Assembly (NCBI GenBank): GCA_031280275.1
Contig: JAITGX010000049.1
Coordinates: forward strand, 4,168 to 68,167
Direction of reading: 5' to 3'
Origin: Synergistaceae bacterium
GTDB taxonomy: Bacteria; Synergistota; Synergistia; Synergistales; Aminobacteriaceae
Length of the DNA stretch: 64,000 nt
Part shown: piece by piece, positions 2 to 61,303 of the stretch
How the letters are laid out: the number at the start of each line of letters is the position of its first letter
Numbering within the stretch: the stretch's first letter is position 1
Translations under genes and position numbers: made by a program
The notes under the pieces: model-generated
Seen by the model: only the letters and a program-made list of their open reading frames with translations
Database searches by the model: none
What the model was told of the DNA's origin: nothing

Positions 2-910
2 GAAATAGTTTTCAGCGACTCCGATCCGGCGGTCAACGAAAAGTACATGGCGGGTGCAGCGGTGCTTATCACCAGCACGAGGGGCATTTCACCCGACATG
101 CTCGCGAAAGCCGTAAATTGCCGTTATATACAAAAATACGGCAGCGGAACCAACAACATCGCCGTCAAGGAAGCGAGCGCCCGAAAAATCCCCGTGGGGG
201 CCGCAGTGGGGGGAAACGCCCGTTCTGTGGCGGAATACGCGCTGGCCATGGCTCTGGCCGTATACAAACACCTGATACAGAGCCATAACGCTTTAAGGCA
301 GGAAGGCCGTTGGCTTAGAACGCTGCTGTGCGACCAGAATTACGAACTCAGCGGGAAAAAAGTCGGCATCGTCGGTTTTGGCAGCATTGGAAAAACCCTG
401 CGGCGCTTGCTGCGCGGTTTCGACTGTGACGTGAGTTACAACGACGCGCAACGCCTTTCCGCGGCAGAGGAGAGCGTTCAAGAAGTCGTCTATATGGAAC
501 TCGACGACATCATGCGGAGCTGCGATTTGGTGTCCCTGCACTGCCCGCTTCTGCCGGAGACAAGGGGCATGATTGACGCGCGCCGCATCGGCCTGATGAA
601 ACCAACCAGCGTGTTGATCAACTGCGCCCGCGGCGGGGTAGTCAATGAAACGGCGCTCTATGACGCGCTGAAGGAACGCAGGATACTCGGCGCCGCTGTG
701 GACAACTACGAGACAGAACCAATAGGAAAGGATCACCCTTTTACTGGGCTCGACAACGTTCTTTTGAGCCCGCACAACGCTGGAGGCACTGTCGAAAGCA
801 TGGAGGCGATTGCGGCGCGCGCGGCCAAGAACATCAATTCCATTTTGGCCAGCGGGATAACCGCCTGCCCGGAGGATTTGGTCAACCGCGCGGATTTAGG
901 GAAGCACTGA
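2..910 (+). CDS. D-isomer-specific 2-hydroxyacid dehydrogenase family protein (5' end runs off the window)
   Basis: Frame is open from the window edge. NAD-binding GIVGFGSIGKTLRRLL (GxGxxG), plus CARGGVV and SPHNAG regions typical of the family. The last codons and the TGA stop lie inside repeat copy 1. Confidence 0.8.
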   Translation, partial: EIVFSDSDPAVNEKYMAGAAVLITSTRGISPDMLAKAVNCRYIQKYGSGTNNIAVKEASARKIPVGAAVGGNARSVAEYALAMALAVYKHLIQSHNALRQEGRWLRTLLCDQNYELSGKKVGIVGFGSIGKTLRRLLRGFDCDVSYNDAQRLSAAEESVQEVVYMELDDIMRSCDLVSLHCPLLPETRGMIDARRIGLMKPTSVLINCARGGVVNETALYDALKERRILGAAVDNYETEPIGKDHPFTGLDNVLLSPHNAGGTVESMEAIAARAAKNINSILASGITACPEDLVNRADLGKH

Positions 911-998
911 TTAATGGGGTTCTTAGGGGCCTGAGGCCCCTAAGCGGGGGGTGGGGCAGGGCCCCATAAAGGACTTGCTCAGCTTAATCCGTGTTTCC
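897..998 (+). repeat. Nested-palindrome MITE/REP-like element, copy 1 (forward, right half degenerate)
   Basis: tagggaagcactgattaatggggttcttaggggcctgaggcccctaagcgggg..gtggggcagggcccca...cttaatccgtgtttcc. Matches the family consensus. Confidence 0.85.
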
Positions 999-1024
999 GC
1001 AGCATGGTATGACGAGGTGCCATT

Positions 1025-2647
1025 ATGGAAAAAAAACTAAAGATATTCTTATCACTGATTTTAACGTTATTGTCGCTGCTCTTGATATCGGGGGCCTTAT
1101 GGCTCCAACCCGAAGCTGGGGCGCTCCTTGACAAAGACCAAGACTATCTGAGCACTCTTGCGCTAAAAATCGAAAAGATACCCCAGGAACGCAGGAAAAA
1201 GGCCATGCTGCTGCGCCTTGGGCTGGAGGGACCCCTGACGCCAGGCGGCAGCGCCTTTCACACCAAGCTGCTGAAGCTCGCGGGCGGCGTGCCGGGGGTT
1301 TTTGGCGGCGCTGACAACGGCCTCGCGCCAGTGACCTCAGAACAGTGGCGCAAGTTCGCCCCTGACTTCGTCTACACGGTTTCCTCAGAGTACAGCGCGG
1401 TGCAAAAACTTATGGAGCGGCCGGAGTGGCGCGGCGTTCCCGCCGTGAAAAACGGCCGGATCGTGCCCTTCGCCGACGAGCTGGTATCCCAGGCCTCTGA
1501 GTATGCAGGGTATTTTGCCTCCTGGCTGGCCTCGGAGATGTATCCGGACGAGTTCGCCGACGAGAAAAATTTAGTTCACCCCATGAAGATAACGGGAGAA
1601 CGTCCCCTTTCCATCGACGTTCCCTACGTGCGGCAGGCGCGAATTGTAGAGAGCGTCATCATGGACTTTACCCACAAAACGCTGCTGGTGGACTTTGAGA
1701 GGCCTCAGCGGATCATCTCCACCAACTCGGGGCAGCTGGACGGCGTCATGACCGTGGGCAACTCCTACTCGCCGCCTCAAACCTGGAGCATCTACCACAA
1801 ACTGGGCTTCGAGCGCTCCCAGTCGGATTTGCTTCAAACGCTCGGTCTCGACGAGACCGTGTCCAGCGTCATGGTTACAGGCGCAGACATGGACAATGCG
1901 GCAGTGAAGACCGCGTCTTACCGGGACATGACCGTCACGGCCGTCGTCACCGCCGGCGTGGAGTCCAACGCGCTCAGAACGTCGAAGGACACGGGCGCTT
2001 GGTATGAGCCGGGCACCATCAACATTCTGGTCATGACCAATCACCGGCTGACCGACCGGGCGCTGGCGCGGGCGATCGTCACCATAACGGAGGCCAAAAC
2101 CGCCGCCCTGTGGGACATGGATATCAGGAGCGCGCAGACCCGAGCGGAAAACCCTGCCACCGGGACGGGCACGGACACGGTCGTCGTGGTGTCTGGGGAA
2201 GGCGTCCCTCTGAATGGGTCGGGAGGTCACGCGAAAATGGGAGAGCTGATAGCCGGTGCGGTACACCAAGCCGTGCGGGAGGCGCTGCTCAAGCAGAACG
2301 GGAAAGCCCCAAGGCGCGGTGTCGCCGAAAGGCTGAGGGAACGGGGGATTTACGCTGCTCACATGCCGCCCGACTGCGCGCCGCAGATGGAAGCTTTGCT
2401 GCTGTCGCCAGACTCCACCGCGCGGGGCTTCATGGAGGCGGCCTTCAGCGTCAGCGACGCCTTTGTCATGGGGCAGGTTTCCGACCTGCGTTCCTTCAAC
2501 GCCTGGGCTTTGGCGGTGGCGTCGGAGACGGCGGGACGGCCTGTCGAAAAGCTGGAGGACCTCTTTAACGGAACCAGGGTACCGGAGGTCTTGGACACGG
2601 CACTGGACGCTCTTTTGACCGGCATAAAAAAGAGGGATAAACCATGA
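1025..2647 (+). CDS. Signal-anchored fusion protein: periplasmic-binding-protein-like segment + CbiZ (adenosylcobinamide amidohydrolase) domain
   Basis: N-terminal hydrophobic segment KIFLSLILTLLSLLLISGALWL. A BtuF/FecB-like stretch follows (FAPDFVYTVSS...WRGVPAVKNGRIVPF). CbiZ-type motifs: VVTAGVESNA, GTINILVMTN, ITEAKTAALWD, ATGTGTDTVVVV. ATGA overlap with the next gene. Confidence 0.65.
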   Translation: MEKKLKIFLSLILTLLSLLLISGALWLQPEAGALLDKDQDYLSTLALKIEKIPQERRKKAMLLRLGLEGPLTPGGSAFHTKLLKLAGGVPGVFGGADNGLAPVTSEQWRKFAPDFVYTVSSEYSAVQKLMERPEWRGVPAVKNGRIVPFADELVSQASEYAGYFASWLASEMYPDEFADEKNLVHPMKITGERPLSIDVPYVRQARIVESVIMDFTHKTLLVDFERPQRIISTNSGQLDGVMTVGNSYSPPQTWSIYHKLGFERSQSDLLQTLGLDETVSSVMVTGADMDNAAVKTASYRDMTVTAVVTAGVESNALRTSKDTGAWYEPGTINILVMTNHRLTDRALARAIVTITEAKTAALWDMDIRSAQTRAENPATGTGTDTVVVVSGEGVPLNGSGGHAKMGELIAGAVHQAVREALLKQNGKAPRRGVAERLRERGIYAAHMPPDCAPQMEALLLSPDSTARGFMEAAFSVSDAFVMGQVSDLRSFNAWALAVASETAGRPVEKLEDLFNGTRVPEVLDTALDALLTGIKKRDKP

Positions 2648-59656: not shown

Positions 59657-59676
59657 CGGGAGGGGGTAAGTAAGAA

Positions 59677-61275
59677 ATGGCGAAATACGTTTTCATCACA
59701 GGCGGCGTGGTTTCCTCTCTAGGCAAGGGCATAACGGCGGCTTCTTTGGGGACTTTGCTGAAAAAACGGGGGTTTAAGGTCTCCATCATCAAAGTTGACC
59801 CCTACTTGAACATGGACGCGGGGACAATGAACCCCTTTCAACACGGGGAGGTGTTCGTCACCGACGACGGCGCGGAAACGGACCTGGACTTGGGTCATTA
59901 CGAGCGGTTTATTGATGAGCCCCTTTCCGACGAGAACACGGTGACGACGGGGAAAATATACTCCGGCGTCATTGAGAAAGAGCGGTGCGGCGCGTACCTG
60001 GGCGGGACGGTGCAGGTGATTCCCCACATCACCAACGACATTCAAGAGCGCCTGATGAAGGCCGGCGAGGGTCGGGACGTGGTTATCGTCGAAATCGGTG
60101 GAACGGTGGGCGATATCGAGGGGCTTCCCTTCCTGGAGGCGATCCGCCAGATGGCGAACCGCGTGGGGCCGGAGAACGCCGTTTACTGTCACGTGACCCT
60201 GATCCCCTGGCTGGAGGCCGCCCGAGAGCTGAAGACCAAGCCCACCCAGCACAGCGTCCAGGAGCTTCGGCGCATAGGGATACTGCCCAACATCCTGGTG
60301 TGCCGGAGCAGTCACCCCATGGACGAGGGCATGAAGTGCAAGATCGCTCTTTTTTGCACCGTGCCCCGTGAAGCGGTGATCGAGGTGCCGGACGAACCCA
60401 CCATATACCAAGTGCCCCTGAGCCTTCACCAGCAGAACCTGGACGGCCTTATCCTGAAGTACCTTTCCATCCCCTCCGAGGGGGAGCCTGACCTCTCCGA
60501 TTGGCAGCTGGTAGTGGACCGCTTTATGAACGCCCCGAAGACCGTGGAGGTTGCCCTAGTGGGCAAGTACGTCCAGCACAAGGACGCCTATCTGAGCGTC
60601 GTAGAAGCGCTCTACCACGCGGGAATCCGCCGCAACGTGAAGGTCAAGGTGCGCTCCGTGGAGTCCGCGGATGTGGAAACGCGGGGCGTGGAGGCCATGC
60701 TGGCGGGTGTGGACGGCATTTTGATACCGGGAGGATTCGGTTCGCGGGGAATTGAGGGAAAAATTGCCACGGTCCGCTATGCCAGGGAAAACAAAATCCC
60801 GCTTTTCGGTATCTGCCTGGGGATGCAGATGATGGTGGTGGAATACGCCCGAAACGTCTGCGGCCTGGCGGGGGCTCACAGCCAGGAGATGGACCCCGCC
60901 GCGGTGCACCCCGTTATTCACCTGATGGAGGAGCAGGTGGGGCTTGCCCGCATGGGCGGCACCATGCGTCTGGGCGCCTACGAGTGCGACCTTGTACCGG
61001 GGTCGGCCGCGGCTCGCGCTTATGGCGCGGAGCGGGTTAGCGAACGCCACCGTCATCGTTACGAGTTCAACAATATTTACCGCCAAAGGCTGGAGGACGC
61101 GGGACTGAAGGTCTCCGGGGTCTGCGTGGGCCGCGACCTGGTGGAAATAGTGGAGCTTCCGGAACATCCTTGGTTCCTTGGCGGACAGTTCCACGCGGAG
61201 CTGCAGTCCCGCCCCGTCCGCCCTCACCCCCTCTTCGCCGCCTTTATCGGTGCAGCAAAGGGCGAGACCGCATGA
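59677..61275 (+). CDS. pyrG: CTP synthase
   Basis: [20 protein letters not shown]-terminus and a glutaminase domain with GICLGMQ and HRHRYEFN. Confidence 0.95.
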
Positions 61276-61286
61276 CCCCAGGACAA

Positions 61287-61303
61287 AATGGGGTTCTTAG
61301 GAG
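61287..61303 (+). repeat. Short internal fragment of the MITE/REP-like element
   Basis: aatggggttcttaggag matches the consensus just inside the left TIR. Lies between pyrG and waaA. Confidence 0.4.

Follow-up and report, generated by a model that had tools for sequence, protein, structure and literature searches.

A Miniature Inverted-Repeat Element Family with IS5-Type Ends in Synergistaceae

A 64,000-nucleotide stretch of a Synergistaceae genome (assembly GCA_031280275.1, contig JAITGX010000049.1, positions 4,168 to 68,167; the whole stretch is referred to below as the window) carries ten copies and two to three fragments of a short, non-coding repeat that is bounded by terminal inverted repeats (TIRs). 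The repeat is best explained as a family of MITEs (miniature inverted-repeat transposable elements) of the IS5 group, mobilized in trans by a DDE transposase and inserting at YTAR sites with duplication of 4 bp, a reading to which a probability of roughly 85% is assigned. The element proper is ~89 bp long, its TIR is 15 nt (GGAAGCRCTGATTAA on the left and a near-complement on the right), and its ends match those of a full-length insertion sequence (IS) that encodes an IS5-like transposase. A first-pass annotation of the window had described the repeat as a dispersed family of MITE- or REP-like (repetitive extragenic palindromic) elements; the analysis presented here supports the first half of that description, a dispersed, non-coding, TIR-bounded family of mobile elements, and connects it to a specific group of transposases.

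Results

The window contains 18 matches at ≤3 mismatches to the 18-nt end motif TAAGGAAGCGCTGATTAA; 0.03 are expected from shuffled sequences, and none out of 100 shuffles reached 18. A 95-nt consensus sequence (TAAGGAAGCACTGATTAATGGGGTTCTTAGGGGCCTGAGGCCCCTAAGCGGGGCGTGGGGCAGAGCCCCACAAGGGCTTAATCAGCGTTTCCTTA) spans all ten copies (alignment A1). A sequence-only covariance model (R1), with which the whole window was scanned with filters off, recovered exactly these ten copies (68–98 bits; E values of 1e-20 to 6e-30) together with two fragments at 14126–14172 and 47890–47917. The third fragment (61287–61303) is too short to be reached by R1 and consists of an exact 17-mer that is common to copies 4 and 8. 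The inventory of copies and fragments given by the first-pass annotation is confirmed. Its statements that both orientations occur, that the TIRs of copies 4 and 6 are doubled and that the hairpin-1 regions of copies 4, 5, and 8 are expanded were confirmed as well.

The TIRs had initially been described as 18 nt long, and the TA at either end of the element as the mark of a TA-targeting MITE. Neither description was borne out: the TIR measures 15 nt, the terminal TA(A) lies outside it and belongs to a 4-bp target duplication of the YTAR type instead of a 2-bp TA duplication of the IS630/Tc1 kind, and in the informative copies the bases around the TA are themselves repeated directly. Across 26 copies, 88.6% of the cells in the 15-nt ends are paired. 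YTAR flanks 31 out of the 59 TIR-like ends found in the window and its relatives (TTAA 24, TTAG 3, CTAA 3, and CTAG 1), against a background frequency of 0.44% (p ~5e-57). Within 22 TIR pairs, identical 4-bp flanks were found in seven elements with TTAA/TTAA and additionally as TTAG/TTAG and ATAA/ATAA, and several other flanks agree at three out of four positions (CTAG/TTAG, CTAA/CTGA, TTAA/GTAA, and TCAA/TTAA). The flanks that are not palindromic form direct repeats: TTAG/TTAG at copy 5, ATAA/ATAA at L004:2020–2109 and CTAA/CTAA at copy 8. The search for target-site duplications proposed with the original annotation thus returned 4-bp direct repeats of the YTAR type.

The boundary of the element can also be read from a comparison of the left junction of copy 1, at the end of a 2-hydroxyacid dehydrogenase gene, with the same position in two metagenomic contigs (L138 and L139). 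The junction reads GCGGAT-TTAG-GGAAGCACTG in the window, GCGGAT-TTAG-GCCTATAG in L139, where the TTAG is uninterrupted, and GCGGAT-TTGG-GACTGTAG in L138. The comparison between the window and L139 places the start of the element at GGAAGC, directly after the TTAG target and not within it.

A full-length IS with the same TIRs, which had been suggested as a check on the MITE interpretation, was found in a viral contig (L110) and not in the window or the relatives that were read. A scan of viral contigs with the 15-mer TIR returned 120 matches, mostly chance matches, and examination of each for an inverted partner led to the L110 element. This 1,263-bp IS (L110:7741–9003) has the ends GGAAGCACTGATTAA and GGAAACACTGATTAA and is flanked by CTAA/CTAA. 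The left TIR of the MITE is identical to the left end of the IS (15/15), the right consensus sequence of the MITE (GGAAACGCTGATTAA) agrees with the right end of the IS at 14/15 positions, and the G/A asymmetry between the two ends is common to both elements. The IS contains a single open reading frame (ORF) of 333 aa with the Pfam domains DUF772 and DDE_Tnp_1, and the encoded transposase is 46% identical to InsH of Escherichia coli IS5 over its full length (E = 2e-108). The plasmid matches listed carry the annotation IS5-family or DDE transposase. Eight more IS copies, which belong to three transposase clusters (sharing 96%, 71%, and 67% identity with the L110 protein), have the same ends and YTAR-like flanks. 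The ends of E. coli IS5A (GGAAGGTGCGAATAA) start with GGAAG and have 10/15 positions in common with the TIR of the MITE, and IS5 duplicates 5'-YTAR-3' on insertion (PMC5009759). The viral contig L110 also encodes a 400-aa reverse transcriptase (RVT_1; 5806–7008) ~730 bp from the IS.

No similarity was found between the core of the MITE and the interiors of these ISs. A derivation of the core from an IS interior was therefore dropped, and the combination of IS ends with an unrelated core identifies the family as a "type II" MITE and not as an internal-deletion derivative. Other small non-coding elements in viral contigs share the GGAAGCACTGATTAA ends and have unrelated, AT-richer interiors, among them a 172-bp element at L096:2155–2326 (flanks CTTA/CTTA) and a 139-bp element in L068 and L120 (flanks TTTA/TTTA), so that the same IS5-group ends have given rise to several MITE families in other hosts. 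Within the window, a scan of 49 ORFs revealed no transposase of any Pfam family and tblastn with the IS5-like transposase gave no match, in agreement with the earlier observation that the window holds no cognate transposase.

A scan of one genome per species with a junction 18-mer identified 13 loci on 12 contigs of a single metagenome-assembled genome (MAG), Synergistaceae bacterium Pc512_bin126, and four chance matches elsewhere. The R1 model recognized 14 full copies and five TIR-less, core-only matches in the 13 loci. The Pc512 material comes from the gut of the lower termite Prorhinotermes canalifrons (PMC11707648). Copies are also present in the metagenomic contigs L138 and L139, whose CbiZ proteins are 90–91% identical to that of the window, and the family is therefore dispersed, as first described, and not the product of a local duplication. 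A 20-kb locus (L140) around a 72%-identical peptidase homolog shows no synteny and contains no copies. The 18-mer ATTAATGGGGTTCTTAGG produced nine matches in metagenome contigs, all of them chance matches according to the model, and none in viral contigs. Distant blastn of the consensus sequence against plasmids gave no match, and Rfam gave none on the copies at gathering thresholds and none at E ≤1 on copy 6 with its flanks. Overall, in the collections that were searched, the family seems limited to a small circle of Synergistaceae.

The five core-only matches (L010:300–362, L010:3396–3483, L010:5076–5145, L012:40–105, and L015:3766–3824) consist of the two hairpins and the preceding AATGGGG without recognizable TIRs. 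They may be decayed copies, or the core may exist independently of IS5-type ends.

Turnover among relatives is most visible in the spacer between the dehydrogenase gene and cbiZ, which is filled in the window, L139, and L138 by different subfamilies and in opposite orientations: a plus-strand copy of the C-G hairpin-1 type in the window, a minus-strand copy of the T-A type with extra TIR debris in L139, and a plus-strand copy of a third subfamily (...CCCATATGGAT) in L138. The three copies look like independent insertions at one hot spot. An inversion of the core in situ is disfavored, the window and L139 having cores of different hairpin-1 subfamilies. L139 carries a further copy upstream of the dehydrogenase gene; in L138 this position holds nothing but a 36-bp spacer, which is otherwise diverged.

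The core of the element is made up of two GC-rich hairpins, and the first-pass annotation had proposed a nested fold (TIR stem, hairpin 1, and hairpin 2) under selection. Over 26 copies this fold is 92.7% paired, its covariation score was reached by none out of 500 shuffles, and slid controls scored far lower. The reported switch between GGGGCC/GGCCCC and GGGGTC/GACCCC is real and corresponds to the hairpin-1 pair of alignment columns 68–74, which is U-A in 17 copies, C-G in eight, and unpaired in one. Single double changes were identified at two hairpin-2 pairs, and one more was seen by eye in the L001/L004 subfamily. The nested fold is thus favored by covariation, but it is not the predicted minimum-energy fold of the consensus sequence, in which TGGGGTTCT pairs with AGAGCCCCA. 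The latter was rejected as the conserved structure, having no covariation support (181 out of 500 shuffles do as well). RNAalifold recovered only hairpin 2 consistently and gave no single consensus fold.

The C-G and T-A states of hairpin 1 each occur with several downstream variants and in both genomes, which hints at multiple events or an exchange among copies. As to the proposed selection on structure, covariation is present but amounts to one well-populated pair and three rare double changes; the pattern is suggestive of selection on the hairpins, and inherited subfamily markers or palindrome-correcting template switching remain adequate explanations of it. Neither hairpin is followed by a T-tract in the intact copies, and only the truncated copy 7 is terminator-like. 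Several copies (window 25961–26040, 27430–27490, and 39044–39110; L006:1030–1138; L013:4584–4706; L139:94–183) contain the hairpin-1 unit (~17–18 bp, CTTGGGGTCTGAGACCCC) two or three times in tandem, as a minisatellite within the MITE.

No ORF was found inside the element and all copies are located between ORFs. The earlier statement that every copy is intergenic holds in this sense, with the qualification that the upstream gene takes its stop codon and the two codons before it from copy 1. Copy 1 (896–998, plus strand, 86 bits) follows its TTAG target (896–899) with the left TIR GGAAGCACTGATTAA at 900–914 and a core in plus orientation; the right end is rearranged into a partial TIR (TTGCTCAGC) and a second TIR (TTAATCCGTGTTTCC) at 984–998. 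Its insertion changes the C-terminus of the dehydrogenase from LGL* to LGKH*. Copy 4 (25924–26066, plus strand, 76 bits) has a tandemly doubled 18-nt end, three hairpin-1 units and a right TIR that lacks TTAAT; the left flank TTAA includes the stop codon of ORF 25553–25927 and the right flank is TTAG. Copy 8 (39025–39142, plus strand, 82 bits) has an expanded hairpin-1 region and a right TIR shortened to TTAATCAG between direct CTAA repeats, the left of which includes the stop codon of a comM-like gene (37490–39028). That several copies lie exactly at the ends of genes follows from the YTAR target, which contains TAA and TAG. Copy 5 (27411–27522, minus strand, 80 bits), with an expanded hairpin-1 region and a perfect TTAG/TTAG direct repeat, lies inside the yajC–secD operon, between the two genes.

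Three copies are located in divergent regions. Copy 6 (34035–34147, minus strand, 98 bits) consists of a full 89-bp element (34055–34143, flanks TTAA/TTAA) and an extra solo TIR (34039–34053) between the start of topA and a low-GC DUF726 gene. A nested insertion as the origin of its doubled TIR was dropped, as it should have left a remainder of the first element and none is present. Copy 9 (47923–48013, plus strand, 90 bits; left flank TTAT, degenerate right TIR) lies between cbiK with its cobalamin riboswitch on the minus strand and uvrB on the plus strand, and adjoins a minus-strand fragment (47890–47918, E = 0.002) that consists of the left TIR and TGAGGTTCTTAC. Copy 10 (57613–57709, minus strand, 95 bits; full length, flanks TCAA/TTAA) separates a subtilase gene from a LysM/M23 peptidase gene. 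With respect to co-directional flanking genes, ~10–11 copies in the window and its relatives are in sense and six in antisense orientation; a bias relative to transcription was tested for and is not significant.

The remaining copies border segments of low GC content. Copy 2 (8335–8432, plus strand, 79 bits; full length, flanks TATA/TTAA) has a tonB-like gene on one side and a small ORF on the other and marks the left edge of a low-GC island in the GC profile, and copy 3 (9008–9105, minus strand, 87 bits; full length, flanks TTAA/GTAA) lies between the small ORF and a gene with the Pfam assignment of a type III restriction (res) protein. A minus-strand fragment (14126–14173; left TIR and the start of hairpin 1, model positions 2–45, E = 7e-7, flank CTAA) marks the right edge of the island. 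The left TIR of copy 2 and this fragment exactly enclose the low-GC segment (8335–14173; 47–52% GC compared with ~60%), with copy 3 inside; the segment contains the small ORF (8634–8960) and a type III restriction-modification pair on the minus strand (res 9187–11832 and mod 12149–13732). The outer flanks of the segment (TATA and CTAA, or TTAA and CTAA when counted from copy 3) differ from each other and form no duplication. In a second segment (34035–35321), the DUF726 gene (34416–35240, 50% GC) is bracketed by copy 6 and copy 7. Copy 7 (35248–35321, plus strand, 68 bits, model positions 2–72) is truncated after hairpin 2 and lacks the right TIR. The combination of hairpin 2 with the ATTTATAATT behind it, 8 bp downstream of the DUF726 gene, scores as terminator-like and is the top-listed site of this kind in the scan of positions 25–40 kb. 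The MITE-rich loci L004 and L010 of the MAG were considered as low-GC cargo regions of the same kind, which they are not.

The shortest remnant is a plus-strand relic at 61287–61303, a 17-nt sequence (AATGGGGTTCTTAGGAG) that copies 4 and 8 carry identically at the inner TIR edge and the beginning of hairpin 1; it was missed by R1. It lies in the 31-bp spacer between pyrG and a Kdo-transferase gene and ends in AGGAG, 3 nt ahead of the first ATG (61307) in the ORF of the Kdo transferase. The remnant may contribute a ribosome-binding site, although the spacing is short.

Some further features of the window adjoin the copies. The cobalamin riboswitch (RF00174, 85.6 bits) is located at 47627–47841 on the minus strand, upstream of cbiK (46649–47521), and copy 9 and its neighboring fragment lie just upstream of it, at the expected position of the promoter. 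The window is rich in cobalamin genes (a cbiZ fusion, cobN, cobS, cobU, and exbB/exbD/tonB). Copy 8 is convergent with a tRNA-Arg(CCT) gene (39178–39253, minus strand) that lies 36 bp from its end and is preceded by a near-consensus promoter-like site (TTGACA-16-TATATT, 39293–39266). Beyond it, a block of ORFs without Pfam match (39391–46615), one of them 1,490 aa long, adjoins a protein with a prepilin-type N-terminal methylation motif (39904–41058), and the block may represent a pilus or pseudopilus locus.

Discussion

A mechanism can be proposed for the spread of the family. A transposase supplied in trans, either from an IS elsewhere in the genome or from a transient visitor, would bind both ends of the element, the 15-nt ends being those recognized by the DDE transposase from one clade of IS5-group ISs. 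The element would then be cut and pasted into YTAR sites, mostly TTAA, with duplication of 4 bp. Copies land in intergenic DNA, often at or near stop codons, because YTAR is rare in a genome of ~60% GC and contains TAA and TAG. The two GC-rich hairpins of the core are unrelated to the IS; the hairpin-1 unit is prone to tandem expansion, and the hairpins are kept palindromic. The family may still be active. Most likely, the elements are selfish and affect their neighbors incidentally, by altering the 3' coding ends of genes, placing stable hairpins in operon transcripts and occasionally leaving a terminator-like relic.

Several observations weigh against an IS5-group MITE. The window, the 13 MAG loci, and L138 and L139 (~160 kb of these genomes were read) yielded no IS5-like transposase, so that a cognate IS within these genomes remains putative. 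In about half of the complete copies the 4-bp repeats are imperfect, being off at one or two positions (e.g., CTAG/TTAG, TTAA/GTAA, and TATA/TTAA). TTAA is its own reverse complement, and in most copies a longer TIR would therefore look no different from a target duplication. No clean empty site showing both junctions was obtained, the copy 1 locus being occupied in all three relatives compared, and the core-only matches would count against this origin if the core exists independently of the IS5-type ends.

Two readings that dispense with an IS5-type transposase have to be set against these points. A TA-targeting MITE of the IS630/Tc1-mariner type, with 18-nt TIRs that start with TA and a duplicated 2-bp TA, would account for the TA at the start and end of nearly every copy. 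TA is also the center of YTAR, so the observation is compatible with either target, but the bases outside the TA form direct repeats (TTAG/TTAG, ATAA/ATAA, and CTAA/CTAA), the junction in comparison with relatives falls after TTAG and before GGAAGC, and the 15-nt ends equal those of IS5-group ISs with 4-bp YTAR flanks, making this alternative very improbable. A REP or REPIN-like hairpin repeat that is moved by a RAYT (Y1) enzyme or kept as a structural or regulatory motif of the host, with incidental TIRs, would fit the GC-rich, intergenic hairpins, their conserved pairing and the TIR-less cores in the MAG. Such repeats lack both the flanking 4-bp repeats and TIRs of the kind found here, which are identical to IS ends; no Y1/RAYT domain was identified in any of the scanned ORFs of the window, and the copies are single and not the inverted doublets that are typical of REPINs. 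The REP-like label of the first-pass annotation is accordingly not supported in view of the TIRs and target duplications, and there is very little to recommend a RAYT-driven origin.

The other two readings concern function. The two-hairpin core might be an exapted module that rides on IS5-type ends and is selected as RNA (an mRNA 3'-end stabilizer, an RNase processing site, or a terminator) or as DNA (a protein-binding site). The covariation at pair 68–74, the rare double changes in hairpin 2, the high degree of pairing and a covariation score that no shuffle reached agree with such a role, as do the persistence of TIR-less cores, the terminator-like copy 7 and the copies within operons (e.g., yajC–secD and dehydrogenase–cbiZ). 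Against it stand the lack of a significant orientation bias, the presence of copies in divergent promoter regions, the missing T-tracts of the intact copies, the lack of a single RNAalifold consensus, the deviating minimum-energy fold and the lack of an Rfam family; the covariation is essentially that of one pair, for which a subfamily marker or palindrome-correcting template switching would suffice. On balance an exapted module is unlikely. Alternatively, the copies might be recombination or cassette boundary sites analogous to attC that serve a site-specific recombinase, in line with the bracketing of the low-GC small ORF (8634–8960) by copies 2 and 3, of the type III restriction-modification genes (9187–13732) by copy 3 and the fragment at 14126–14173, and of the DUF726 gene by copies 6 and 7. 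Most copies, however, are located between housekeeping genes of normal GC content and in mixed orientations, the window encodes no integrase or recombinase, the bracketed segments have outer flanks that are not matching duplications, and AT-rich islands simply offer more YTAR targets; a role as cassette boundaries is hardly credible. A broader scenario, in which a host-selected hairpin module was packaged between IS5-type ends, spread in termite-gut Synergistaceae and was kept after decay of the TIRs, and/or pairs of MITEs mobilize the low-GC cargo that they bracket (e.g., the type III restriction-modification island), is doubtful to a similar degree as the exapted module.

As an IS5-group MITE, the family has several counterparts. 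MITEs derived from the IS5 family are known from Porphyromonas gingivalis (BrickBuilt, MITE293, and MITE700) and Neisseria (ATR, which is linked to ISNme1) (PMC4596501). Like the present family they are short, non-coding, intergenic, and dispersed, with an unrelated interior between TIRs that equal, or nearly equal, those of IS5-family ISs, and BrickBuilt shares the expansion of an internal repeat (minisatellite). The present family differs from them in its TIR sequence, its occurrence in the phylum Synergistota, its length of ~89 bp, and its core of two GC-rich hairpins in place of an AT-rich interior, and in that the genomes carrying it have so far yielded no cognate IS. E. coli IS5 (insH) shares the GGAAG start, 10/15 TIR positions and the 4-bp YTAR duplication (PMC5009759). 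Unlike IS5, the MITE contains no transposase gene and shows no similarity to the interior of the IS.

Similarities to other groups of repeats are less specific. The Correia elements of Neisseria (CREE/NEMIS) are, like the present MITE, bounded by TIRs, abundant, intergenic, and inserted at TA-containing targets. Their length (~100–150 bp), frequent co-transcription and ability to fold into long hairpins are further points of resemblance. They differ in having 26-bp TIRs of unrelated sequence, a TA duplication, an IHF site, and promoter elements, and no IS5-type parent is known for them. REPs and REPINs likewise are GC-rich intergenic palindromes of high density. REPs are not known to have TIRs or target duplications and depend on the Y1 enzyme RAYT, whereas the present MITE has the ends and flanks of an element of the DDE IS5 group. 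The Tourist MITEs of the PIF-Harbinger group are non-autonomous derivatives of an IS5-related superfamily with a TAA/TTA-type target preference; they differ in being eukaryotic, in a 3-bp duplication, and in their unrelated sequence.

Literature searches returned no paper on MITEs or repeat elements in Synergistaceae, and by these searches the family itself is previously undescribed. It represents an ordinary example of a well-known kind of selfish DNA and changes no concept; what is added is a MITE family in Synergistaceae that is connected, through its ends, to a specific clade of the IS5 group. For the bacteria that carry it, the copies rewrite the 3' ends of genes and put strong hairpins into operons such as yajC–secD. 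They also fragment the assemblies of these uncultured gut bacteria and are usable as strain markers. More generally, the family illustrates how an element that targets YTAR is funneled to stop codons and intergenic DNA in a GC-rich genome.

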